Of a stretch of 37,004 bases of DNA, positions 4,416 to 27,480 are shown piece after piece. Within the stretch, counting starts at the first letter, position 1; each line of letters starts with the position of its first letter. Position numbers and translations under genes: made by a program. Below the pieces are notes generated by a model that was not told where the DNA came from, made no database searches, and worked only from the letters and a program-made list of their open reading frames with translations. The stretch is from IMG/VR virus record IMGVR_UViG_3300046385_000126, positions 64,001-101,004 of that record; one strand, given 5' to 3'. The DNA is from a virus. Its lineage: Duplodnaviria > Heunggongvirae > Uroviricota > Caudoviricetes.

Positions 4416-7400
4416 ATGCCATTAGAAAACACACTTAGCGCTAGCCCATATTTTGACGATTATGATCAGGCTAAAGAATTTTATAAAGTTCTTTTTAAAC
4501 CTGGCGTTGCGTTACAAACGCGCGAGTTGAATCAGCTACAAAGCATTCTGCAAAACCAGATCGAGCGATTTGGTAACCATGTATTCAAGTCTGGCACCAT
4601 TATCAGTGGTGTCAACTTTTCATACATCCCAACATACACATACGTCAAGATTCTTGACACAGAGACTAGCGGCACACCGTCTCTTCCATCTTCATATGTT
4701 GACTACTTCGTCAAGAGTGATCTAAACCTGACTGCTCGTATCGTCAATTATGAAGATGGTTTGGAATCAAAATCTCCTGATTTGAAGACATTGTATCTTC
4801 AATATACTAACAGCTCACAACCTGACACTGCTAATGGTAATGCGATCTATACTACATTTAGACCTGATCAGTTGTTGACTGTTTATAGCAAAGACAACAA
4901 CCTATTCAGCGTCACTGTTAATAACGGTGGTCTGGGCTTTTCTAACGCAGATGCTGTTGTAGTAACGAGTGCGATCACCATTACTGGCAACACTATTGCG
5001 TTTGCAAATGGTGAGACTATTACACAGTCTACTACCGGTGCAAAAGCTGTTATTGCTTCCGTCAATACAACCGCAATTGCAAACACAACAATTTTGAAAA
5101 TTAAGCCACGCACGGCTGATTTGACTAACACATCGGTAAGTGCTAATGCGTGGACAATGTCGACTGGTTACAACGTTGTCGGTGGAACTAGTGGTGCAAC
5201 AGCAAACGTTGTGTCGCTGATTGGTAGTGGCGCAGTTGGTCTGGTTTCTACAGATACACAGGGTATTGTTCAGACACTTACACTAGCTGATGGTGGTGCT
5301 GGTTATGACTTCCTTCCTCACGTTACCCTAAAAACAGCTAACTCGACAGCAACTGTTAATAACCTTGACTTGCAACCAAGCAACTTCAAGGCTCTGATCA
5401 CTGTTGCTAATACCAGCACAAACGCCATCGGAACTGGATATGCATTTGGTGTGTCCGAAGGTATCATCTACCAAAAAGGTTACTTCCTTAAAGTAGAACC
5501 ACAAGTTATCACAGTTGATAAGTTTACAACTGCACCAGATAGCGTTGCTGTTGGTTTTAAGACTGTTGAAACCATTGTTGATGCTTATACAGATGAGTCT
5601 CTGTATGATAACGCTGCTAACACAACCAATTATACAGCTCCTGGTGCTGATCGTCTAACGCTTACTCCTGTTCTTACGTTGATGACGACAGCAGAAGCTC
5701 AGGCTAACGTAGACTTCTTTGCATTGGCTGAATGGAAAGAAGGGTTCCCATATAAGGAAAACCGTGTTTCTGTATACTCTAACCTTGCTGATGAACTAGC
5801 GCGCCGTACACGTGAGGCACAAGGTAACTTTGTTGTTGATTCATTCCAGGTTGGTACGAAAGAAAAGGCAACGCCAAACACATCAACTGTACAGACAGTT
5901 ATTGACCCTGGTCTGGCATACATCTCTGGTTACCGTGTTCAGACATCGTACAACAACTACCTTGATGTTGATCGCTCCACAACGAAGACTTCGTTGAGCA
6001 ACCAAAGTATTACTGTTAACTACGGTAACTACGTCAAGGTCAAAGAACTAGCTGGCTTGTTTAACTTCAAAGCTGGTGATACAGTCAGTCTTTATGATAC
6101 AGCAAAACAATATGTGTCAGCATCTACTATTAGTACAAACGGATCAATTGCACCTGCAGGTACCCAAATTGGTACTGCCCGCATTCGTTCACTAGTTATT
6201 GATTCTGGCAGCCCAGGCACACCAGACTGTGTATACAGAATGTATTTGTTTGATGTTGTAATGACTCCTGGACACTCTTTCCGTCAAGCGAGAAGCATAT
6301 TTTTCGATGGTACTGTTCAAGACGGTATCGCTGATATTGCTCTTGAGTATGATGCTACAACATCAGCAAACCTAGCATTCTTGAATGATGTGAATAACGA
6401 TCAGTTGATATTCAATATCGGTCAACCAGCGGTCGCTACACTAAGCGATCTTTCATATCAATATAGAACAGTATCCGATGCTACACTACAACTAACGTCT
6501 GGTGGCCAAGTTGTTATTGGTCCGTTGGGATCAGGCCTATCATTCCCATATAGTGATGGCACGCTTTCTTCAACACAGGAACGCGACTTCATCGTATTCC
6601 CAATTGCAAACACGCAAGCTGCAGCAAATATTGGTGGGTCATTAGCAGTCAATGCAAGCAACACTATCATTGTTGGAACAAGCACGACGTTTGCAAGTGA
6701 TCTACGTGTTGGTGACCATGTTAAGTTACTTGCCGCTAACGGATCCAGCATTGTTAGACAGGTTTCTTCAATTGCAAATAACACATACCTGACGCTGACG
6801 TCTAACGCATCTGTTTCGTTTACAGCAAACGCTGTAATATTCTATCCCGCTCTTTATCCGTTGGATGTTGAAAACAGAAGCGACCGCACCATCACTGTTT
6901 CTGCTAGTAGCAAGACTGTTACCATCAACATCAACAAAACGCTGGCCGGAACCGCTAACGTTATTGCTGTTTACAATATTAAGTCTACCGCAGCAACTCC
7001 TGTTACTAAAACAATCAAACGCGATATCTTTGTTAAGCTACACACAAGCAACAACGTGTCAAGCAACACCGGTCCTTGGGCACTTGGTCTTCCTGGTGCC
7101 GCTCGATTGAAGAAGGTGTTTTTGGGTACAGATGCTGCTGTTAACACATCGAGCACAGATGTAACAAAATACTTCTATGTAGATTCTGGTGATGATGAAA
7201 ACGCATACCGCACTTCTCGTTTGGTATTGAACACTGGTGCAAATCTTGCTGTTAATACCAACCAGTATATCATGGCTCAGCTTGATGTATTTACAAATAA
7301 CGGTCAAGAAGGTTTCTTTACTGTTGGTTCGTACAACATCGATGATACGAAGACTCTGGCAGCTTCAAACACCACAATTAACACACTGGAAATTCCAGAA

Positions 7401-9155
7401 ACGATCACAAACAAAGGCATTTATTATGACCAGCGTGATGTTATCGATTTCCGTCCATACGGTACTGCAACCGCTAACCTATCCACGACTGTGGCTGGCG
7501 CGACTGTCAATCCTGCAAATACGTTTGCATTGAGTGGTGACGACCAGTTCTTCCCTGTACCAGACTCCGCTGTTACGTTTGGTGTTGAATACTACAACAC
7601 ACGTATGGACCGCGTCGTTGTACGTCAAGACTCCACGTTCGAAGTGTTGAGTGGCGTGTCAACACTATCACAGCCTGTTCCACCCCGCGCACCAGCTGAT
7701 GCTGTTACGTTGGCGTTGTTGACTATTCCTCCATATCCTTCACTACCATCTGCATTCAACTCTACCACACTAGAGTTTGTTTCAAAAGGAGTTGGTAGCT
7801 CTAAAGGACCAATTTCAAAACGAACTGCTGATTATAAGATTAACACACGTGCATCCAAAGGTACACGTAACGAGCAGCCTCGTAGATACACTATGCAGGA
7901 TCTTGGCGCTATTGAGCGTCGACTTACCAACGTAGAGTATGCTGTCTCTTTGAGTCAAGTAGAATCTGCAATTAAAGATGTGGTTATCCCTAGCGGAATT
8001 ACACCAACAACCAGCCGCTTCAAGAATGGCTTCTTCGTTGAGCCTTTTGATGACTACACAAAAGTCGATCTATCGAGCCGCGAATATGCTGCAACAATTG
8101 ACCAGCAAAAAGGGTTTTTGAAACCACCTACAAAGCAGATTAACTTTGAAGCATGCTTTGATTTGACAGATACTGCTACAGCTAACTCCGTTGTGACTGG
8201 TAATACCCTGATGTTGCCTTTTACTGATGAGTTGCTGATCGATCAAAGTATCAAGAGCTCTGTCGTAGGGGTTGACGGTCACCGCATTCAATTCAACGGC
8301 GAAGGTACAATTACTCCTTCCTCCTTCTCCATTCAGACACGTGGCGAAGTCACGGTTGTGGAGGATCCGCCACCACTTCCACCACCTAACTATGGTGGTC
8401 CAGGCGATGATAGTGGATTCTTCGAGGGTCTAGTTGAGGGTGTGGGTGATTTGGTTGACGGTATTCTTTCGCCTATATCTGATGGCGATTGCTTCACACC
8501 TGAAACAATCATCTTTATGGCTGATGGATCATCCAAGCAAATTAAAGACGTTAAGGCTGGTGAACGTGTACTTGCATCTGATATGAAAACAGTCAACACT
8601 GTTCGTTATATTGAGATGTTGCGTAAGACGTCATGGGATTCATTGTATTCTCCATCACCATCGTTTAAGCCTTTTGTCACTGTTAACCACCCACTGATCA
8701 TTAACGGTGAATTGGTGTCTGTTGACCCTAATGAGACATACATGAGATATCCATGGTTAGGTATGTCCGTCAGCATTGATAAATATACCGATCACGTTGA
8801 AATGATTCCATCTGATAACCGACCAGTATATAACTTGTGGGTTGACGGGGACGGTACATATATTGTTAACGGCTTTGGTACCACATCGATCGTCGGTCAC
8901 GGCTACGCGTTGGCTGGTGCAGTTCTACGTGGCAGTATCAATCACGATCAAACGATGGAGATTATGCGTAGATTCACCTCAGATGGCCGCGAACTACAAT
9001 ATGGGTCATACATCGTAAACAAGGTGCTTGATAAACTAAACATTAAATGGGTAAATGACATGCTATTTGCAGTTGCCTTGCAGGACGGTGTTGCTAAGAA
9101 GGCACTATTCGGCATCACCAGATTCATTGGTACACTAGCCTGGATGGCAAAGTAA
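4416..9155 (+). CDS. vrlC: VrlC/DUF4815-type large baseplate/virion protein, N-terminal part, with C-terminal Hint domain (1579 aa)
   Basis: N-terminus 'SPYFDDYD...FYKVLFKPGVALQTRELNQLQSILQNQIERFG..FKSG' plus 'APGADRL', 'DPGLAYISGY', 'YTMQDLGAIERRL..VEY..SLS' and 'RFKNGFFVEPF' are VrlC-family motifs; follows gp8. Confidence 0.8.
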   Translation: MPLENTLSASPYFDDYDQAKEFYKVLFKPGVALQTRELNQLQSILQNQIERFGNHVFKSGTIISGVNFSYIPTYTYVKILDTETSGTPSLPSSYVDYFVKSDLNLTARIVNYEDGLESKSPDLKTLYLQYTNSSQPDTANGNAIYTTFRPDQLLTVYSKDNNLFSVTVNNGGLGFSNADAVVVTSAITITGNTIAFANGETITQSTTGAKAVIASVNTTAIANTTILKIKPRTADLTNTSVSANAWTMSTGYNVVGGTSGATANVVSLIGSGAVGLVSTDTQGIVQTLTLADGGAGYDFLPHVTLKTANSTATVNNLDLQPSNFKALITVANTSTNAIGTGYAFGVSEGIIYQKGYFLKVEPQVITVDKFTTAPDSVAVGFKTVETIVDAYTDESLYDNAANTTNYTAPGADRLTLTPVLTLMTTAEAQANVDFFALAEWKEGFPYKENRVSVYSNLADELARRTREAQGNFVVDSFQVGTKEKATPNTSTVQTVIDPGLAYISGYRVQTSYNNYLDVDRSTTKTSLSNQSITVNYGNYVKVKELAGLFNFKAGDTVSLYDTAKQYVSASTISTNGSIAPAGTQIGTARIRSLVIDSGSPGTPDCVYRMYLFDVVMTPGHSFRQARSIFFDGTVQDGIADIALEYDATTSANLAFLNDVNNDQLIFNIGQPAVATLSDLSYQYRTVSDATLQLTSGGQVVIGPLGSGLSFPYSDGTLSSTQERDFIVFPIANTQAAANIGGSLAVNASNTIIVGTSTTFASDLRVGDHVKLLAANGSSIVRQVSSIANNTYLTLTSNASVSFTANAVIFYPALYPLDVENRSDRTITVSASSKTVTININKTLAGTANVIAVYNIKSTAATPVTKTIKRDIFVKLHTSNNVSSNTGPWALGLPGAARLKKVFLGTDAAVNTSSTDVTKYFYVDSGDDENAYRTSRLVLNTGANLAVNTNQYIMAQLDVFTNNGQEGFFTVGSYNIDDTKTLAASNTTINTLEIPETITNKGIYYDQRDVIDFRPYGTATANLSTTVAGATVNPANTFALSGDDQFFPVPDSAVTFGVEYYNTRMDRVVVRQDSTFEVLSGVSTLSQPVPPRAPADAVTLALLTIPPYPSLPSAFNSTTLEFVSKGVGSSKGPISKRTADYKINTRASKGTRNEQPRRYTMQDLGAIERRLTNVEYAVSLSQVESAIKDVVIPSGITPTTSRFKNGFFVEPFDDYTKVDLSSREYAATIDQQKGFLKPPTKQINFEACFDLTDTATANSVVTGNTLMLPFTDELLIDQSIKSSVVGVDGHRIQFNGEGTITPSSFSIQTRGEVTVVEDPPPLPPPNYGGPGDDSGFFEGLVEGVGDLVDGILSPISDGDCFTPETIIFMADGSSKQIKDVKAGERVLASDMKTVNTVRYIEMLRKTSWDSLYSPSPSFKPFVTVNHPLIINGELVSVDPNETYMRYPWLGMSVSIDKYTDHVEMIPSDNRPVYNLWVDGDGTYIVNGFGTTSIVGHGYALAGAVLRGSINHDQTMEIMRRFTSDGRELQYGSYIVNKVLDKLNIKWVNDMLFAVALQDGVAKKALFGITRFIGTLAWMAK
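8490..8888 (+). other. Hint (Hedgehog/intein) domain, aa ~1359-1491 of the VrlC-like ORF
   Basis: Block A 'CFTPETIIFMADGSSKQIKDVKAGERVLA', block B 'VTVNHP' (TxxH), block F 'VYNLWVDGDGTYIVNG'; ends 'TTS' instead of 'HN-C/S/T'. Confidence 0.85.
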
Positions 9156-15668: not shown

Positions 15669-18600
15669 ATGCCAGTAAAACCATTAAAATACATTGAAAT
15701 AAGCGGATCACCATCAACTCAGATTATGTCCAACACGGACATTACTGACTATGTGGCAAAATTAATAGGTACCGAATTTGCTAGCACCACAGGTGTTGGT
15801 TCCCTCGGTGTTGGTTCGCTGGCCAATGGAACATCTATTGGTACATGGGTGGACACGTACTATCCAAACGCAATCGGCGACCATCCCATTGACCCTGCTG
15901 CGGTCACAGTTTCAAACACAACACTTTATCAAGACGTCTCTAACGGATCGTTGACGGGTATTTTTTCACGCCCTGTTGGTTGGGATACTTCAAACAACGT
16001 ACCACAACTCTTATCCGATTCCGACATCGACACAAGCATCACGTCTGTTATTGCTAACTATGTTGTTAATGGTGGTGTTGGTTCATATGTCCTACAACCA
16101 ACTGCTCCAGCAACAGGAACATGGGTTTCACGTGGAACACTTACAAACACACAAGCACCTAGTGTAACCAACACGACTACGTTGTGGCAGAAGACAGCTG
16201 AATCTACAGGATCTGCTGTACGTTTGTTGAAACTGGCAAACGGTGGCTTCCAGCAGTTTTCTGATGCTGATATTCGAAACCTGACGTTTAAACTCCGCAA
16301 TTACATTGTTAATAGCGGCATTGGCAAATATGTCCTTTCAACGACCACGCCAGTAACTCCTGGTACATGGGTGCAAGCAGGCACTGGTTTTGACGATATA
16401 CGTCTATCACTTGAAGATGGATTTTACGCTGGTGCATATAACAGTACGTTCACTGGCGGTTATACTGCTACATACTCTGGTAATTACAACAACACCTTCT
16501 CTAGTGCATTTACCAGCACATATTCATCTTCTTATTCAGGTGCATATAACTCGGCATTTAGCAGAGCCTACACAAGTGTGTATACAGGCGCCTTTACCGG
16601 ACAATATAACCAAGCGTTCACTGGTGCGTTCAGTAGAGCGTTTACCGGCGCCTTTACCGGACAATATAACCAAGCGTTTACTGGTAACTTTACTGGTGTA
16701 TATGCTAACGCGTTCACGGGACAGTACTCTGGTAATTATGTTGGCGCATTCAGTACAGTTTTTAGCGGTGCATATACTGGTGCATACAATCAGACATTTA
16801 CCGGGTCGTACATTGGTACGTACCTAAGCAACTATACAGGAGCTTTCAGTGGAGCCTATGCCTCTACGTTCACTGGAACTTTTACTGGCGCATACACAGC
16901 AGCTTACAGTGCTGTGTTCACTGGTCAATACTCTGGTGGCTACACAAGTGCATTTACTGGTAGCTATACTTCAGCATATACGACTGCATACACGGGTGCC
17001 TACACAGGAGCATATTCGAACGTATTTTCTGGTGCCTACACAGGCGGTTATACTACAACGTTTACTGGTCTGTATTCAGGCGCATATTCAAGAACGTTCA
17101 CTGGCGCATATGCTGGCTCTTATACGGGCGTTTTTAATCAGACATTCACTGGTTCGTACCTAGGTGGTTATGTAGGATCATTTACCGGCGCATATGCTGG
17201 TGCTTACTCACGTGTGTTTTCAGGATCCTACACTGGCATATATTCTGGTGGATATACTGGTGCGTTTTCTGGATCATATACTGGTATCTACACTGCTGCA
17301 TATACAGGTTTATATTCAGGTGGGTACACAGGAGCGTTTACTGGGATCTACACTGGTGCATATACTGGTGCATTCAATCAAAGCTTTAGTGGTTTGTATT
17401 CCGGTTCATATACAAGTGCGTTTACTGGTCTGTATTCCGGTACATACACAAGTGCATTCTCAGGATCATATACGGGCGCGTATACAGGCGCATATAGCCA
17501 AGTGTTCACTGGTTCATATTCTGGTGGATATGTTGGCACATTTACAGGCGCGTATGCTGGTGCGTATTCACGTGTATTCACAGGATCGTACACTGGTGCA
17601 TATACAGGAACATACAACCAAACGTTTACTGGATCATATTCTGGTGGGTACGTAGGATCATTTACTGGTGCTTATGCCGGCGCTTATTCGCGTGTGTTTA
17701 CTGGATCATACACAGGTGCATACACGGGCATTTATAACCAAACCTTTACTGGATCTTATTCTGGTGGGTACGTAGGATCATTTACTGGTGCTTATGCTGG
17801 TGCTTATTCTCGCGTTTTCACTGGATCGTATTCTGGTATCTACACCGGCGTATATAATCAGACGTTTACTGGATCATATTCTGGTGGGTATGTTGGTTCA
17901 TTTACTGGTGCTTATGCTGGCGCTTATTCACGAGTATTCACTGGCTCTTACACAGGCGCATACACAGGCGTATACAATCAGACATTTACTGGATCGTATT
18001 CTGGTGGATACACTCGAGCGTTTACTGGCGCATATGTTGGTGCTTACTCGCGTGTGTTCTCAGGATCATATACTGGCCTCTACACAGGATTATATACTGG
18101 CATATACACTGGACTATATTCTGGTGGATATGTAGGATCATTTACAGGTCTATACTCCGGCACATATTCAAGAATATTCTCTGGATCTTACACAGGTTTA
18201 TACTCTGGTGTGTATCAGAATACATTTACTGGCTTGTACTCTGGTGTGTATCAAAGCACATTTACAGGTGCATACTCTGGTAACTACACTCGTGCATTTA
18301 CTGGTAGTTATGCTGGTAACTATATTGCATCATATGCTGGTGCATATGCTGGTACGTACAATACAGGTTATATTGGTTATTATGCACCCGGCGGTGCTGT
18401 GTACTACACTGGTTTATATACTGGCTTTTATTCTGCATATTATGCTGGTAACTATATAAACCCTTTTAATGGAGCTACGTATACTGGTGGCTATTTGGGA
18501 TCACGAGCTCGTAGTTTTGCTGGTGGATATACAGCTGGCGCTGGTTATGCTGGAACATACACAGGTTTCTATGCTGCTGGCTATCTCGGGTCCTATCTTG

Positions 18601-20780
18601 GATACTATGGTGGCTCACGTGCCCGAGCATATAGAAACCCATATAATGCTGTATGGTACACGGGTTACTATGCTGCTGGTTACGCTGGTTGGTATTCTGG
18701 CTATTATGCTGGCTCACGTGCACGTAGTTATACTGGATACTACGCTGGATCGCGCGCGCTTACATTTACAAGAGCGTTTACTGGTAGCTACACTGGATAC
18801 TACAACAGAACATTTACTGGTGCTTATAGCGGCGCCTATAACGGTGCATTCACGGGAATTTATTCTGGTGGATATATTGGATCCTTTACTGGCGCATATT
18901 CCGGTGGCTACATTGGCTCATTTACAGGGGCATATGCCGGTGCGTATGCTGGCAGCTACCAAGGAAACTTTACGGGTGCGTACTCTGGCGCATACAATAA
19001 CACCTTCACTGGCATTTACTCTGGTGGATATGCAGGAGCGTACGCTGGTGCATACGCTGGCGCGTATGTTGGAAACTACACTGGATCGTTTAGCGGTATA
19101 TACAGTGGTGCATACAACCAAACGTTCACAGGAGCATATTCAGGTGGTTATGTAGGTGCGTTCACTGGTGTTTGGGCGGGTGCATATGCTGGTAATTACT
19201 CCGGATCATTCAGTGGATTGTATAGTGGAGCATACAACCAAACATTTACAGGGGCATATTCTGGTGGATATGTAGGCGCATTTACCGGTGCCTGGGCTGG
19301 TGCTTATGCGGGCAATTACTCCGGATCATTTAGCGGTCTATACTCTGGTGCGTATAACAACACCTTCACCGGTGCATACTCAGGTGGATACGTTGGTGCG
19401 TTTACCGGTGTTTGGGCAGGGGCATATGCAGGTAATTACTCTGGATCATTCAGCGGCCTGTTTTCAGGTGCATACAACCAAACATTCACTGGAGCTTATT
19501 CAGGTGGATACGTAGGTGCATTTACCGGAGTTTGGGCAGGAGCATATGCAGGTAATTACTCCGGTTCGTTTAGTGGTTTATACAGCGGAGCATATAACCA
19601 AACGTTTACTGGTGCATATGCTGGTGGTTATGTTGGTACATTCTCCGGTATTTACTCTGGCAACTTCGTTGGATCGTATTCGAATTCGTTCACTGGCGCT
19701 TTTGCTGGAGCATACAATCAAGCGTTCACTGGCGCTTTCGCTGGTAACTACACAGGCGTATTCTCAGGAATATATTCTGGTGGGTACTCTGGATCATACA
19801 ACCAGGTATTCTCTGGTGCATATTCTGGTACCTACAATACAGGATACTCTGGCGCATATGTTGGAAATTACAACAGCGTTTTCACTGGCGCTTTTGCTGG
19901 CGCATATGTAGGCAACTACTCAGGTTCCTTTACCGGATTGTACAGCGGAGCATACACTCAAACATTTACAGGTGCATATGCAGGTGGATACACTGGTGCA
20001 TTCACAGGGGTTTGGACTGGATTCTACTCTGGCGGTTATGTTGGAACGTTTACTGGTGCATATGCTGGTGGTTATAATTCCACATTCTCCGGCATATATG
20101 TCGGTGGTTATGCTAACACGTTCTCTGGTGTTTATAGCGGATCTTACAACACAACCTACACTGCAGTATATTCAGGTGCATATAACCAAACATTCTCTGG
20201 TGCATACTCTGGTGGTTATACTGGATCGTTTAGTACAGCATACACTGGTGGATATTCATCAGGGTTTACTGGTGCGTTTACTGGCCTATACAACCAAACG
20301 TTCACCGGTAACTTCTCTGGTGCATATGCAGGTGGATACACCGGCACATTCTCTGGCGCATATGTCGGTGGGTATGGCAACACATTCTCTCGCACATTTA
20401 CAGGAATATACACCGGCGTGTATAGTAACGTATTTACAGGCGTTTATAACCAAGCATTCACTAGCCAATTTACCGGTGTATACAATCAAGCATTTACTGG
20501 TGCGTTTAGTAGTGCATTTACAGGTCAGTTCACTGGTCAATATGCGCAACAATTTACAAGCGTATACACTGCTGCATACACAGGCGCGTTTACAGGATCA
20601 TATACATCAGCATATACTGGCCAGTATACTCAAATGTTTACAGGAACATTTACCGGCGTTTATTCCGCAACTTACACCGGTCTATATACAAGAGCATATG
20701 TAGGAACATACACAGGACTGACAATTGTTTCTACACCACAAACAGTTGCGACACTTAAACTTTGGGTACGGACATCATGA
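15669..20780 (+). CDS. [Y/F]-x-G-x tetrapeptide-repeat protein, long paralog (1703 aa)
   Basis: Same three-module N-domain, about 1430 aa of repeats (16422-20720), C-terminus KLWVRTS; uninterrupted 5.1-kb ORF. Confidence 0.9.
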   Translation: MPVKPLKYIEISGSPSTQIMSNTDITDYVAKLIGTEFASTTGVGSLGVGSLANGTSIGTWVDTYYPNAIGDHPIDPAAVTVSNTTLYQDVSNGSLTGIFSRPVGWDTSNNVPQLLSDSDIDTSITSVIANYVVNGGVGSYVLQPTAPATGTWVSRGTLTNTQAPSVTNTTTLWQKTAESTGSAVRLLKLANGGFQQFSDADIRNLTFKLRNYIVNSGIGKYVLSTTTPVTPGTWVQAGTGFDDIRLSLEDGFYAGAYNSTFTGGYTATYSGNYNNTFSSAFTSTYSSSYSGAYNSAFSRAYTSVYTGAFTGQYNQAFTGAFSRAFTGAFTGQYNQAFTGNFTGVYANAFTGQYSGNYVGAFSTVFSGAYTGAYNQTFTGSYIGTYLSNYTGAFSGAYASTFTGTFTGAYTAAYSAVFTGQYSGGYTSAFTGSYTSAYTTAYTGAYTGAYSNVFSGAYTGGYTTTFTGLYSGAYSRTFTGAYAGSYTGVFNQTFTGSYLGGYVGSFTGAYAGAYSRVFSGSYTGIYSGGYTGAFSGSYTGIYTAAYTGLYSGGYTGAFTGIYTGAYTGAFNQSFSGLYSGSYTSAFTGLYSGTYTSAFSGSYTGAYTGAYSQVFTGSYSGGYVGTFTGAYAGAYSRVFTGSYTGAYTGTYNQTFTGSYSGGYVGSFTGAYAGAYSRVFTGSYTGAYTGIYNQTFTGSYSGGYVGSFTGAYAGAYSRVFTGSYSGIYTGVYNQTFTGSYSGGYVGSFTGAYAGAYSRVFTGSYTGAYTGVYNQTFTGSYSGGYTRAFTGAYVGAYSRVFSGSYTGLYTGLYTGIYTGLYSGGYVGSFTGLYSGTYSRIFSGSYTGLYSGVYQNTFTGLYSGVYQSTFTGAYSGNYTRAFTGSYAGNYIASYAGAYAGTYNTGYIGYYAPGGAVYYTGLYTGFYSAYYAGNYINPFNGATYTGGYLGSRARSFAGGYTAGAGYAGTYTGFYAAGYLGSYLGYYGGSRARAYRNPYNAVWYTGYYAAGYAGWYSGYYAGSRARSYTGYYAGSRALTFTRAFTGSYTGYYNRTFTGAYSGAYNGAFTGIYSGGYIGSFTGAYSGGYIGSFTGAYAGAYAGSYQGNFTGAYSGAYNNTFTGIYSGGYAGAYAGAYAGAYVGNYTGSFSGIYSGAYNQTFTGAYSGGYVGAFTGVWAGAYAGNYSGSFSGLYSGAYNQTFTGAYSGGYVGAFTGAWAGAYAGNYSGSFSGLYSGAYNNTFTGAYSGGYVGAFTGVWAGAYAGNYSGSFSGLFSGAYNQTFTGAYSGGYVGAFTGVWAGAYAGNYSGSFSGLYSGAYNQTFTGAYAGGYVGTFSGIYSGNFVGSYSNSFTGAFAGAYNQAFTGAFAGNYTGVFSGIYSGGYSGSYNQVFSGAYSGTYNTGYSGAYVGNYNSVFTGAFAGAYVGNYSGSFTGLYSGAYTQTFTGAYAGGYTGAFTGVWTGFYSGGYVGTFTGAYAGGYNSTFSGIYVGGYANTFSGVYSGSYNTTYTAVYSGAYNQTFSGAYSGGYTGSFSTAYTGGYSSGFTGAFTGLYNQTFTGNFSGAYAGGYTGTFSGAYVGGYGNTFSRTFTGIYTGVYSNVFTGVYNQAFTSQFTGVYNQAFTGAFSSAFTGQFTGQYAQQFTSVYTAAYTGAFTGSYTSAYTGQYTQMFTGTFTGVYSATYTGLYTRAYVGTYTGLTIVSTPQTVATLKLWVRTS
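16587..16678 (+). repeat. Exact 32-nt direct repeat with 60-nt period
   Basis: GGCGCCTTTACCGGACAATATAACCAAGCGTT at 16587-16618 and 16647-16678. Confidence 0.9.
17500..18190 (+). repeat. 120-nt (40-aa) super-repeat, left arm, about 6 copies
   Basis: CTGGTGG(A/G)TA at 17521, 17641, 17761, 17881, 18001 and 18121; unit YNQTFTGSYSGGYVGSFTGAYAGAYSRVFTGSYTGAYTGx. Confidence 0.9.
18900..19680 (+). repeat. 120-nt (40-aa) super-repeat, right arm, about 6-7 copies
   Basis: C(T/A/C)GGTGG at 18901, 19021, 19141, 19261, 19381, 19501 and 19621; unit YNQTFTGAYSGGYVGAFTGVWAGAYAGNYSGSFSGLYSGA. Confidence 0.9.
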
Positions 20781-21217
20781 AGAGAACTATTAAAAATCCA
20801 CACTGGACAAACAACGCACGTACTGTCCTTTCTGCTGAATTCCATTATGAAGATGGGCGCGTGCTTACAGCTACGATCAGTGATTCAGATAAGGGCAATC
20901 CAGATCTGGTTGAAATTTTGGCGAACTTTACGGCTGAGGAGCTAGAAGCAAACACTGCTAGAGCTATCAAGCGCCAAAGTCAGGAAATGGAATCCAGACG
21001 CCGCCAAGAAGAAGCAATGGCAGAAAAAGCACTGCAAGAGGAACTGTTTGCAGTTAAACTAAAAGCTTTCGAGCTAGATGTTGTCAAAGGTACAACTAAC
21101 CGTGCCTTGAAATCACAAATTCGCCGAGCAAAGAGTGTATTTGAGGTGTACGCATACACAGCAGCCTTGATTCTTGACAACCAACAAAACCCACCAACTG
21201 ATTCGACTGCGGAGTAA
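20777..21217 (+). CDS. Hypothetical protein, possible fibre assembly chaperone (146 aa)
   Basis: ATG at 20777 overlaps the upstream TGA (ATGA), so it is preferred over the TTG at 20762; beta-rich N-half and charged helical C-half; position right after a fibre-like gene. Confidence 0.5.
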   Translation: MKRTIKNPHWTNNARTVLSAEFHYEDGRVLTATISDSDKGNPDLVEILANFTAEELEANTARAIKRQSQEMESRRRQEEAMAEKALQEELFAVKLKAFELDVVKGTTNRALKSQIRRAKSVFEVYAYTAALILDNQQNPPTDSTAE

Positions 21218-21220
21218 ATA

Positions 21221-21931
21221 ATGGATATTGATAATGGATTTCTTCTCGTGGCATCGGTCACGGAAGATTATGTGAAGTCTGCAAATTATTCGGCTGATAG
21301 CATCCGCGATTATTATCCAGATGCTCATATTACTTTATTCGTGCCGCCTGCACTTCGTCACTTGGCAGATGATTCTGCATTTGATTTGATTGTATCAGAC
21401 CCAGATGTACCAAATCACACACGGACAAAATTGTATGCTTTGTCTCGTACTCCATATAAGAATTTAACTGTATATGTGGATGCTGACATGGAATGCATGC
21501 ACGAAGACGTTCAAAACATTTGGAACGAAATGCCCGACGACTGTGATATCTTGATCACCAAGATCAGACCATACAATGGTAAGATTTCAAAATGGGCAAC
21601 AGGTGAAATGATCTACCATGGTGGTTTCTTCATGTACCGCACCAATCCAAAGACAATTGATTTTATGGATCGTTGGTGGGTGGACTACCATAAACAACGT
21701 GCAGAGCCATGGCCATATGATGAAAGCGAGATTCCAGTCACACTAAGACCATGGGACCAGTTTACATTTTGGAAGCTGCTAAATATTGACAAACTAGATA
21801 CAAATGTTCAAGTGTTTAAAGACGATGCTCGATGGAACTTTGTTAACGGTTATCGCTTGAACGAAAACAAAGACCCAATCGTTTTCTACCACCACACTAT
21901 TCCATCCAGACGCGAGGACACTAAAAAATGA
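21221..21931 (+). CDS. GT-A fold glycosyltransferase / nucleotide-diphospho-sugar transferase (236 aa)
   Basis: 'TKLYALSRTPY..TVYVDAD' (DxD after a hydrophobic strand), 'HGGFFMY', 'WDQFTFW', 'RWNFVNGY', terminal 'FYHHT'. Confidence 0.75.
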   Translation: MDIDNGFLLVASVTEDYVKSANYSADSIRDYYPDAHITLFVPPALRHLADDSAFDLIVSDPDVPNHTRTKLYALSRTPYKNLTVYVDADMECMHEDVQNIWNEMPDDCDILITKIRPYNGKISKWATGEMIYHGGFFMYRTNPKTIDFMDRWWVDYHKQRAEPWPYDESEIPVTLRPWDQFTFWKLLNIDKLDTNVQVFKDDARWNFVNGYRLNENKDPIVFYHHTIPSRREDTKK

Positions 21932-22548
21932 AATCAATTGATATTGTAAACCTAGAATTAAAAAACATCCTTGACGAGTTTATGGCTGTCCTGCAGAACT
22001 GCGATCGCTCGGAATATCCGTATGGAAATTGGACAGATATTACTCCTGACTATGCATGTGGTATGGAATACCTAGAACATATGCAGGGTAAAAAGGTTGA
22101 TGGCTTTCCGGAAAAAACACTAGGGGTTGATCTATCACGCTTTACTCCACCACAAGAGTCGTTGCGCAAAGCTCTTACCAAACTCGATCATGATTTGATT
22201 GCATGGTCCGGCTCTCGAAACAATGCGGTCAAGATGTTGTATCCTAAGGGTGGTTACATGGGCTGGCACCACAATGCAAACGCAGCTGGTTACAATATTC
22301 TGTTGTCCTGGTCCAAAGATGGTAAAGGCTACTTCCGGTACCAGGATCCAATCACAAAGGAAATTGTTACAATGCAGGATACGCCTGGTTGGACATGCAA
22401 GGTTGGGTACTACGGACCATGGCATGAAAAAGACCGTATTTACTGGCACTGTGCTAATGCAGCACACGAAGAAAGATTCACGCTAGGCTACATTATTCCT
22501 CATGAAGGAATGTGGCAAGATATGTGTGACGATATTCAGAGCAAATAA
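21928..22548 (+). CDS. 2OG-Fe(II) oxygenase-like / cupin-fold protein (206 aa)
   Basis: 'LYPKGGYMGWHHN', distal 'YWHCA' and 'ERFTLGYII' follow the double-stranded beta-helix pattern; ATGA coupling to the upstream GT. Confidence 0.6.
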   Translation: MKSIDIVNLELKNILDEFMAVLQNCDRSEYPYGNWTDITPDYACGMEYLEHMQGKKVDGFPEKTLGVDLSRFTPPQESLRKALTKLDHDLIAWSGSRNNAVKMLYPKGGYMGWHHNANAAGYNILLSWSKDGKGYFRYQDPITKEIVTMQDTPGWTCKVGYYGPWHEKDRIYWHCANAAHEERFTLGYIIPHEGMWQDMCDDIQSK

Positions 22549-23273
22549 TAATCTGAATAAGACTGATAATCCCGTGGCGTTGTTGGACCATTCAACAGTA
22601 CCACGGGAATTTTTTTGACTATTTCAATAAACTTGCTTGGGCGGTATCCAAAATCAACTGGATCGTGTTGCTCATTCATATTGTGATCGACGCCGTACAT
22701 ATGTGAATAGAACTTCATCGCTGGAAAGTATTCTGTAGATGATCCTGCTGAGTGGTGTTCATAAAACATAAACGAATCCATTCCCCAATAGTACTTGGTC
22801 ATAAACTTTTCAGGGTCTTTGATAAAATGATCCCATATTGGTCTGGCTAGTGGCGACCTCCATGTCATACAGCTGCTGTTGAAAGGGTGGTGGTGCTCAA
22901 TAGTATGGTATTGATGTTTTTTACGCCACACAGCATTGATAACTGTAAGAGCTCCACTGTTTGTATCAATGAGGTCGTCAATGTTTGATTTAATAACAAG
23001 GTCTAAATCGAAGTACATACGTGGACCATTGGGTAGTTGGCTATCAAACTGCTCACTGAACATGAACAGCTTGTTATACACAATTACATCGAGCCCGTGA
23101 TCCACATAGTCAATACACGCTATGTTTTTATCAACACCAGTCTTGTCGTCTGTGTAACAAAAGAAGTTGAACGGCCTACTGATATTCTTCTGACACATTC
23201 TAAATAGGTTGTTGACCATAGATGTGTCATATTTACGGCCAAGTTTAACGCATATAATGTTTAGAGATTCCAT
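22536..23273 (-). CDS. GT-A fold glycosyltransferase (245 aa), only clear minus-strand gene in the window
   Basis: 'ICVKLGRKYD...VNNLFRM...FFCYTDD...YNKLFMF...YFDLDLVI..NID...FNSSCMTW' is a GT8-like pattern with a DxD motif (DLD). Confidence 0.8.
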   Translation of the reverse strand: MESLNIICVKLGRKYDTSMVNNLFRMCQKNISRPFNFFCYTDDKTGVDKNIACIDYVDHGLDVIVYNKLFMFSEQFDSQLPNGPRMYFDLDLVIKSNIDDLIDTNSGALTVINAVWRKKHQYHTIEHHHPFNSSCMTWRSPLARPIWDHFIKDPEKFMTKYYWGMDSFMFYEHHSAGSSTEYFPAMKFYSHMYGVDHNMNEQHDPVDFGYRPSKFIEIVKKIPVVLLNGPTTPRDYQSYSDYYLL

Positions 23274-23903: not shown

Positions 23904-24233
23904 ATGGCGATCAAGGCAAATCTCATTATAGATCAGGGAGTCGACTACTCAACCACCATTGAATTAACAAATGATAATGGTGAAGCAGTTAGTCTTTCTG
24001 GATACTCAGCACAGGCACAGATGCGTAAAACGTACACGTCATTGAATGCTGTGAGTTTTAGTGTTACCTTAGCGGATTCGCTAGGAGCGGTTATATTGGG
24101 GCTGTCAGCTAATACGACAGCCAATATGACGCCAGGTCGTTTTGTTTATGATGTACTACTAACGAATAATATTGGTGTCAAATCCCGTATCGTTGAAGGC
24201 ATCGTGACACTTACTCCAAGAGTGACCAAATGA
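23904..24233 (+). CDS. Small Ig-like virion protein (BppU-N/LtfC-like, 109 aa)
   Basis: 'ANLIIDQGVDYSTTI...LSGYSAQAQMRKTY...LSANTTA...GRFVYDVLL...RIVEGIVTLTP.VT' is a common T4-like structural module upstream of gp13. Confidence 0.65.
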   Translation: MAIKANLIIDQGVDYSTTIELTNDNGEAVSLSGYSAQAQMRKTYTSLNAVSFSVTLADSLGAVILGLSANTTANMTPGRFVYDVLLTNNIGVKSRIVEGIVTLTPRVTK

Positions 24234-26814: not shown

Positions 26815-27480
26815 ATGGCAAACAATAAACTACAGATCAAGCGCACCACTGTTACTGGCCGCGCACCTAACACAACGTCCAGCTCAAACACCACATACAT
26901 CGATGCTGGTGAACTAGCAATTAACCTGACAGATAAGAAGCTGTTTTCATCAGATGGTACCAGCATTATTGAGTTCGGTACAGGAACACCTGTGTATGAT
27001 GAAAACGGTACACTGATCACGACGACGTATGTGACACAGGCCCAAAATGGTCCAGCGTTTTCAGCATATCCGAACTCAAGCATTCAGCAGACTATCTCTT
27101 CAGGGTCCCAACAAAAGGTCTTGTTCCAGTTAGAAGAGTATGACACTAACAACAACTTTGCTAGTTCAAGATTCACACCAACAGTCGCTGGTTACTATCA
27201 ACTAAATGCTACTGTCCGTATGAGCGGTACTATGGGCACCGGTGAAAATATGCTTGTGATTTGGAAAAATGGATCAGAGTATAAGCGCGGATGGAATGCT
27301 AGTGGCACAGAAGTGGGTGCTAGCTTCTTTGCAATGGGCGTCAACACTGTAGCGTATGCTAATGGAGCAGGGGATTACTTTGAAGTATATGTACAGCAAG
27401 GTAGTGGAGGAAACAGAGACGTTACTGTGGCTGGTGGCAATATAACATGGTTTAACGGCGCAATGGTGAGAAGTGCGTAA
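26815..27480 (+). CDS. Short fibre/adhesin: Mtd-type N-terminal anchor plus C1q-like domain (221 aa)
   Basis: 'LQIKRTTVTGRAP...GELAINLTDKKLF' anchor; 'PAFSAY...KVLFQLEEYDTNNNF...FTPTVAGYYQLNATV...IWKNG...GDYFEVYV' C1q/TNF-like jelly-roll pattern; AGGA SD. Confidence 0.75.
   Translation: MANNKLQIKRTTVTGRAPNTTSSSNTTYIDAGELAINLTDKKLFSSDGTSIIEFGTGTPVYDENGTLITTTYVTQAQNGPAFSAYPNSSIQQTISSGSQQKVLFQLEEYDTNNNFASSRFTPTVAGYYQLNATVRMSGTMGTGENMLVIWKNGSEYKRGWNASGTEVGASFFAMGVNTVAYANGAGDYFEVYVQQGSGGNRDVTVAGGNITWFNGAMVRSA

Follow-up and report, generated by a model that had tools for sequence, protein, structure and literature searches.

What structure can be built by a protein that consists almost entirely of four-residue repeats, and why are these repeats interrupted by an irregular segment exactly in their middle? 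The question is raised by a gene at positions 15669–20780 (+ strand) of a 37,004-nucleotide stretch of viral DNA (the window), which is a segment, positions 64,001 to 101,004, of the 101-kb IMG/VR contig IMGVR_UViG_3300046385_000126 from a T4-like myovirus. The gene is one uninterrupted open frame encoding a repeat protein of 1703 residues, here called P0001, and it is unchanged in a second, 169.6-kb Joint Genome Institute (JGI) contig of the same phage, the two contigs having 1 mismatch over 21.4 kb. An earlier note on this DNA proposed that the two repeat arms run out and back and pair antiparallel. The analysis reported here supports that proposal: the arms are equivalent, antiparallel and anchored at a common base where the termini come together, and P0001 is probably a virion fibre made of one intramolecular out-and-back β-hairpin.

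Repeat Architecture of P0001

P0001 begins with an N-terminal base domain of three tandem β-β-α-β-hairpin modules (residues 1–252; 15669–16424, + strand, as for all following parts), from which a left, outgoing arm of 164 [Y/F]-[T/S]-G-x units extends (residues 253–908; 16425–18392). This is followed by an irregular Tyr/Gly/Arg-rich centre, the putative distal tip (residues 909–1032; 18393–18764), a right, returning arm of 163 units (residues 1033–1684; 18765–20720), and a C-terminal tail with a closing strand (...TLKLWVRTS) and the stop codon (20721–20780), which packs with the N-domain in the model of a paralog. The period-4 aromatic run is without breaks in both arms. Between residues 253 and 1681, the spacing of Tyr, Phe and Trp is exactly 4 in 333 of 366 successive pairs, and the two unbroken aromatic runs comprise 164 units (residues 253–905) and 163 units (residues 1033–1681). 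The repeat unit can more fully be written as [Y/F]-[T/S/A/N]-G-x, and the repeat region contains no Asp, Glu, Cys or His at all.

The register breaks, all three prolines of the repeat region (residues 907, 932 and 991) and four GSRA[RL] motifs are found only within residues 906–1032, at about 18384–18764. The irregular segment of 124 residues is centred on residues 966–969, which is the arithmetic midpoint of the repeats, and the central position that the earlier note had assigned to a Pro-containing irregular segment is thus borne out. The segment also holds two NP[FY]...YTG turn motifs, which in our reading are placed symmetrically about residue 966; this suggests a two-pronged tip. The Gln-containing TGQ and YNQAF motifs, described earlier as clustering in the outermost parts of both arms, are indeed located at residues 312–420 and 1595–1655, the base-proximal ends of the arms.

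Mirror Symmetry of the Two Arms

A comparison of the left arm with the reversed right arm had been put forward with the earlier note as a check of antiparallel pairing. When each arm was reduced to the succession of Phe and Tyr in its aromatic column and the left arm was read forward against the right arm in reverse, the choice between Phe and Tyr proved to be palindromic at the level of single residues: residue i matches residue 1938-i, with a phi coefficient of 0.84 over 163 units. The mirror pairs comprise 50 Phe-Phe pairs, 101 pairs without Phe and 12 mixed pairs, compared with about 73 mixed pairs estimated for independent arms, and the mutual information at the aromatic column forms a single sharp peak at the mirror register (z +55.7). 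In the outer halves of the arms, where the super-repeat described below is absent and the pattern irregular, phi still reaches 0.83; permutations do not exceed 0.55, and the best direct-order alignment yields 0.57. A DNA inverted repeat linking the arms of P0001 was looked for and none was found, so that such a repeat is ruled out as the source of the symmetry; since, in addition, reverse-complemented codons could not encode the same residues, the symmetry is a property of the folded protein.

The mirror register pairs Gly with Gly and sets column 2 of the repeat opposite column 4. Where the Gly column is occupied by another residue, such as the Gln of YNQ or the Arg of YSR, Gly stands opposite in 72 of the 78 pairs holding a non-Gly residue, the depletion of non-Gly/non-Gly pairs being marginal (Fisher p 0.06), and three quarters of these non-Gly residues sit directly before a Phe. 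Phe-Phe levels recur about every 12 residues. A second pairing register, meaning a sheet of more than two strands, was considered and rejected; the corresponding mutual-information peaks lie six residues off in non-aromatic columns and are explicable by local pre-Phe motifs on both arms.

Homologous Family and Arm Length

A profile search with the N-domain retrieved 393 clusters at 50% identity with lengths of 105–1490 residues, and 38 further close relatives were found besides these clusters. All family members have in common the N-domain, repeats flanking an irregular centre, and a tail of the form G-L-T-V-...-L-W-V-R-T-A, in which L, W and R are invariant or nearly so. None of the relatives in the ESM Atlas and the AlphaFold DB has been characterised, and practically all Atlas clusters are viral. 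When close relatives of great length were sought, the search returned only proteins whose N-domains are 35–40% identical; judged from these sequences, arms of 163 units appear so far to be unique to this phage. Where this phage has two family members, a close relative that shares its gene order has one; the second member in this phage is the 499-residue paralog P0002 (14150–15649, + strand), which is of like design with 25 and 27 units per arm.

The earlier note had also reasoned that a duplication in one arm needs an equal-length one in the other, which can be compared among homologs. In 84 complete homologs, arm lengths, counted as the units in the first and last run, co-vary over 5–164 units with a Pearson coefficient of 0.97 (0.88 without P0001) and a Spearman coefficient of 0.77, and the median difference between left and right is 2 units versus 8 in permutations; for cluster representatives alone, the Spearman coefficient is 0.61 (n = 55). 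Typical arm pairs are 15/15, 19/19, 23/23, 29/29, 32/32, 34/34 and 164/163, and the smallest members, counted by hand around the turn motif, have 6/6, 7/7 and 8/8 units. Some members with arms of 0–7 units and loops of 4–7 residues keep the split third module, and across the family the central region ranges from 4 to about 1100 residues.

The base-anchored mirror register was the best Phe/Tyr register in 26 of the 40 homologs scanned, and the mirror phi reaches 1.0 in P0002 (24 units), P0013 (28 units) and P0087 (19 units); a second register scan with regular-expression anchors was set aside because wrong anchors fell inside the repeats of several proteins. P0015 and P0022, which are closely related, differ by a Tyr-to-Phe change in the left arm and by the same change at the mirror position of the right arm. 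In P0057, P0170 and P0014/17/19/20, the tetrapeptides are replaced by units of 8, 9 or 13 residues, present in equal numbers per arm; for instance, the 9-residue unit has been expanded three times on each side, and the half-lengths of proteins with the 13-residue unit are 119/124, 132/137, 145/150 and 146/150. In P0057, four left units of one type face four right units of a different, Gly-rich type.

Super-Repeats and Codon Divergence

Blocks of 40-residue super-repeats had been noticed earlier on both sides of the centre, and they are recovered by Tandem Repeats Finder as 120-nucleotide arrays at 17452–18149 (5.8 copies, 78% matches) and 19083–19653 (4.8 copies, 77% matches). At the protein level, the blocks cover approximately residues 573–852 and 1073–1352. 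The left core (residues 613–812; 17505–18104, + strand) contains four units (residues 613–772) that are 90–97% identical in protein, and the four units of the right core (residues 1153–1312; 19125–19604, + strand) are 93–100% identical. The DNA identity of the units is 76–85%, and at identical residues merely 39–65% of the codons match. Because the protein is near-identical and the DNA and codons have diverged, the repeats can be regarded as old and held by selection at the protein level. The scrambling of codons may reflect either very old duplications under strict purifying selection or selection against repeats at the DNA level.

The mirror register puts the super-repeat blocks opposite each other, residues 613–812 facing residues 1126–1325, and the left and right 40-residue units are direct homologs with 57–72% DNA identity. 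The third Phe is at column 25 in the left unit and at column 29 in the right unit; in our reading, since columns pair c with 14-c, this shift keeps Phe opposite Phe.

Base Domain and Structure Prediction

The N-domain of P0001 is 37% identical to that of P0002, for which AlphaFold2 was run as a monomer with 97 family sequences, a check that had likewise been proposed with the earlier note. In the model of P0002, the predicted local distance difference test (pLDDT) score is above 95 for residues 1–265 and 97–98 for residues 480–499; strand 474–497 lies beside strand 243–265, with end points summing to about 740 versus 743 for the palindrome register, and the NPF-x-G-x-WY motif is exactly at the turn. 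The C-terminal strand is therefore packed on the N-domain, in agreement with the claim that the termini meet at the base. For P0037, a homolog of 324 residues, AlphaFold draws the full hairpin with strands 238–274 and 277–322 at a mean pLDDT of 87; a three-copy fold of the same protein received a score of 0.00, which weighs neither way on a trimer. Three family clusters have ESM Atlas models that can be superposed on the P0037 model at template-modelling (TM) scores of 0.67–0.78.

Both parts of the split third module have their counterpart in module 2: the opening half of module 3 matches it with z 15, and the C-terminal tail matches its closing strand with z 2–3, an L-W motif being nearly invariant in both that strand and the tail. 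The entire repeat region has thus been inserted where the hairpin of module 3 turns, and the KLWVRT strand completes the N-domain as had been supposed. The P0002 and P0037 models have the same four top structural matches, the MABP-type β-prisms Mp2Ba1, Plu-MACPF, MVB12B and perforin-2 P2; the four ranges of Z scores are, from the highest down, 7.0–7.1, 6.6–7.0, 5.9–6.6 and 5.5–5.7; the matches span from about residue 40 to the C-terminus, and the next rows have Z 3–4. Foldseek searches of both models against the PDB and BFVD returned nothing at E ≤ 0.001.

Comparison with Known Proteins

MABP-type β-prisms, namely the MABP domain of MVB12B, the C-terminal domains of Plu-MACPF and Mp2Ba1, and perforin-2 P2, would share with the modelled base a three-sheet pseudo-threefold prism at Z 5.5–7.1; these values are below 8 and may reflect only a common arrangement, with identities of 5–13% and no Pfam match. 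Unlike in these prisms, each module of the P0001 family also carries a helix. Perforin-2 P2 projects an extended β-hairpin, and we know of no β-prism whose hairpin runs to hundreds of residues.

Of the known designs, the out-and-back needle of T4 gp37 comes closest: it has the topology in common with P0001, though it differs in sequence, repeat, metal sites, scale and base fold. The collar domain D10 of gp37 is assembled from residues 811–881 and 1010–1026, so that its two flanks come together at the base while the tip that binds the receptor lies at the turn (PMC6957217). Similarly to this needle (D10–D11), P0001 would follow an out-and-back path with both flanks forming one base domain and the tip at the turn, and both proteins belong to a T4-type structural module with dedicated assembly factors; the stem of gp37 is all β, and Gly packs against Phe in it (PMC6957217). 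The differences are nevertheless considerable: no sequence, fold or structural match of P0001 to gp37 or gp12 was found; gp37 has His-x-His iron sites, whereas the P0001 repeat region is without His; gp37 is a proven trimer; its stem has about 60–90 residues per pass compared with 650 in P0001; and a strict tetrapeptide repeat on a single-chain β-prism base, as in P0001, is foreign to gp37.

In tryptophan zippers and in the single-layer sheet of OspA, aromatic pairs on one face of a hairpin stabilise it without a classical core. P0001 would likewise have cross-strand aromatic pairs in the mirror register, one at every fourth position and alternating with Gly-Gly pairs; the zipper and OspA examples are 12–50 residues long, and to our knowledge no natural protein repeats an aromatic cross-strand pair motif 160 times. 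Ice-nucleation and antifreeze β-solenoids are also rich in short tandem repeats of Gly, Tyr, Thr, Ser and Ala with aromatic ladders; they are one-directional coils of 16-residue repeats, with which the mirror symmetry and equal arms of P0001 do not fit.

In Pfam, the only match of P0001 is Gly-zipper_YMGG (PF13441) at 21.5 bits versus a gathering threshold of 28.9, no stretch passing alone; membership was rejected, as the match is below threshold and reflects the composition of a Gly-rich stretch. Neither PHROGs nor Pfam has a family, including those of fibres, baseplates or whiskers, that matches P0001 or P0002, and megablast and tblastn of P0001 against phage GenBank records gave nothing. 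Sequence searches of the PDB with a repeat fragment and the family profile gave nothing or a marginal compositional match to immunoglobulin A1 (IgA1) protease (E 0.001). In the literature on tetrapeptide-repeat fibres, tyrosine ladders, β-prism fibres and phage C48C1, no description of the family was found.

Proposed Structure and Competing Explanations

In the proposed structure, the three tandem modules of the base would form a pseudo-threefold β-prism in which the β-hairpin of the third module is hugely lengthened. The chain would leave the base as 164 units, pass through the 124-residue tip, return as 163 units and close the third module with LWVRT. The arms would pair antiparallel in the one fixed register given above, with aromatic opposite aromatic, Phe with Phe and Tyr with Tyr, and with Gly opposite Gly or, now and then, opposite a Gln or Arg next to a Phe pair. 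The arms would form a direct two-stranded ribbon, one face of which carries the aromatic and the Gly pairs and the other the small polar residues. With the register fixed at the base, an arm could lengthen only if the other lengthened by as much. The variable, irregular middle of the chain would become the distal tip, held away from the particle by the stalk, which would be about 215 nm long if fully extended (652 residues per arm at ~3.3 Å each) and about 34 nm long in the paralog; coiling would shorten it.

Several observations weigh against this proposal. The arms are poorly modelled, with pLDDT of 30–50 in P0002 and about 60 in P0037, and in P0037 AlphaFold places the turn at residues 275–276, compared with a 7-residue loop at 275–281 when the base-anchored register is applied by hand; the fine register is thus not confirmed by the predictions. 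By the run-based count, some homologs have unequal arms (P0061 31/5, P0053 11/24, P0118 6/21, P0070 10/7), which in our view are partly artefacts of counting, where a single irregularity splits a run, and partly real intermediates. The presence of the protein in the virion is proposed from gene context. A free two-stranded ribbon of 650 residues per arm, moreover, is unprecedented and may need partners.

How the hairpin would be assembled is less certain than the pairing of its arms. It is possible, and we hold it only tentatively, that P0001 is a free-standing single-chain "tyrosine/phenylalanine zipper" about 1 nm thick and at most about 200 nm in length, for whose stability cross-strand pairs of aromatic residues and of glycines, in alternation, would suffice. 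An equally tentative alternative is that three or six hairpins twist into a multi-stranded tube or rope with buried Phe-Phe layers and with Tyr-Tyr layers that are exposed or water-filled. Nearly all known phage fibres are trimers, which would suit such a bundle, and the strict sorting into Phe-Phe and Tyr-Tyr pairs with a recurrence of about 12 residues is expected if the members of a pair share their burial state. The gp37 needle is itself a trimer of chains that run out and back, and in its stem Gly is packed against Phe (PMC6957217). The base of the P0001 family, however, is modelled as a single-chain pseudo-threefold prism, which does not call for a trimer, and the secondary mutual-information peaks at other registers, which a bundle might produce, are explicable by local motifs. 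The Phe/Tyr sorting could equally represent periodic buried contacts in a bundle or, on a free ribbon, Phe pairs capped by the Gln or Arg beside them.

Antiparallel pairing of the arms between chains would likewise produce mirror covariation and arms of equal length; in a head-to-tail dimer or polymer it would give a rod of double length with base domains at both ends. Monomer predictions do not discriminate here, as they always close the chain on itself. This arrangement is nonetheless improbable: members with only 0–7 units and 4–7-residue loops keep the split third module, for which a tight hairpin is simpler, the position of the turn motif coincides with the arithmetic midpoint, and the C-terminal strand, by homology, closes the very module that is begun ahead of the arms. 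Less probable still is a one-directional β-solenoid or β-helix of the ice-nucleation or antifreeze kind, or a disordered low-complexity spacer, with the termini far apart. Solenoid coils would be compatible with the composition and with super-periods of 12 and 40 residues, the low-confidence repeat region has weak, low-Z matches to leucine-rich repeat (LRR) and solenoid proteins, and AlphaFold is unsure about the arms; but a solenoid would leave unexplained why the arms are equal, why the irregular segment is centred and why the Phe/Tyr choice forms a base-anchored palindrome at the level of single residues, the C-terminal strand is confidently part of the N-domain, and strong purifying selection with scrambled synonymous sites speaks against disorder. 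The intramolecular out-and-back hairpin therefore remains the reading that we prefer.

Implications for Fibre Design and Host Range

Known phage fibres are built as trimeric β-helices, β-spirals, coiled coils and collagen-like rods. An out-and-back hairpin stalk of this kind has not been described for any fibrous protein, and it would represent a new building principle, a single hairpin of strict tetrapeptide repeats whose strand length can be set from a few to 164 units. Long β-ribbons and nanofibres could be designed with the help of the pairing code, by which Phe and Tyr each stand opposite their own kind and a bulky residue of the Gly column stands opposite Gly. It can also be seen that equal arms and a protein-level palindrome can reveal hairpin topology from sequence alone, and the 393 clusters, which come from uncultured, mostly aquatic T4-like phages, would gain a reading. 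The probable site of host contact would be the hypervariable middle of the gene and not its end, which alters the search for host-range determinants. If the free ribbon is true, it would be a new class of fibrous fold and the longest β-hairpin known, its length evolving by matched insertions, and it would provide the phage with an ultra-thin tether presenting an exchangeable tip.

Gene Neighbourhood and Probable Fibre Role

The phage has recognisable baseplate-wedge proteins, a giant DUF4815 protein, gp13, gp14, gp15, terminase, sheath, tube and portal, and its portal protein has at most 57% identity to that of any sequenced phage. The genes of P0001 and P0002 are placed between the baseplate genes (gp6/gp8/DUF4815) and gp13–gp20; the equivalent region of T4 contains gp9–gp12 and the whisker gene. 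The neighbourhood is kept in distant phages whose N-domains are 30–40% identical. Position in the structural module and a conserved neighbourhood with an assembly-like gene suggest that P0001 would be a host-contacting fibre mounted on the baseplate or tail. The assembly-like gene encodes a protein of 109 residues (23904–24233, + strand) that matches phrog_3304, "L-shaped tail fiber protein assembly", at E 1e-20, and its counterpart is conserved next to the homolog in Phage C48C1. That homolog, an unannotated protein of 3347 residues (OQ984149.1, CDS0201; L004:612-10655), is the sole relative found by tblastn among 50,697 phage records. It has the same N-domain and C-terminal strand as the family and Arg-rich 8-residue repeats (Y-x-R-x-R-x-S-x), and its arms are broken by several globular-looking non-repeat insertions, so that it is not simply two-armed.

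Three small genes of about 150, 236 and 206 residues (20762–22548, + strand) are 31% identical to the trio after the C48C1 homolog and are found in the same order in loci L005–L009. The trio follows a family member in every context examined (L004:10750-12630, L005:11200-12916, L007:11018-12768). The middle gene of the trio and a reverse-strand gene at 22536–23273 have only sub-threshold matches to glycosyltransferases; the products of the trio and of the reverse-strand gene may assemble or modify the Thr/Ser/Tyr-rich fibre.

Another fibre-related gene lies between the repeat proteins and gp13, at 26815–27480; its product of 221 residues resembles long-tail-fibre distal-subunit PHROGs and baseplate-wedge PHROGs over their N-terminal part (E 1e-8 to 1e-6). 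In the phage of locus L007, which carries a family member of 332 residues, a radical SAM gene (L007:14843-15997) and a gene for a large Mtd_N (major tropism determinant N-terminal) protein (L007:18446-20999) lie a few genes downstream. The DUF4815 protein of the baseplate region in the window (1579 residues; 4416–9155) has sub-threshold matches to Hint modules near residues 1356–1393.

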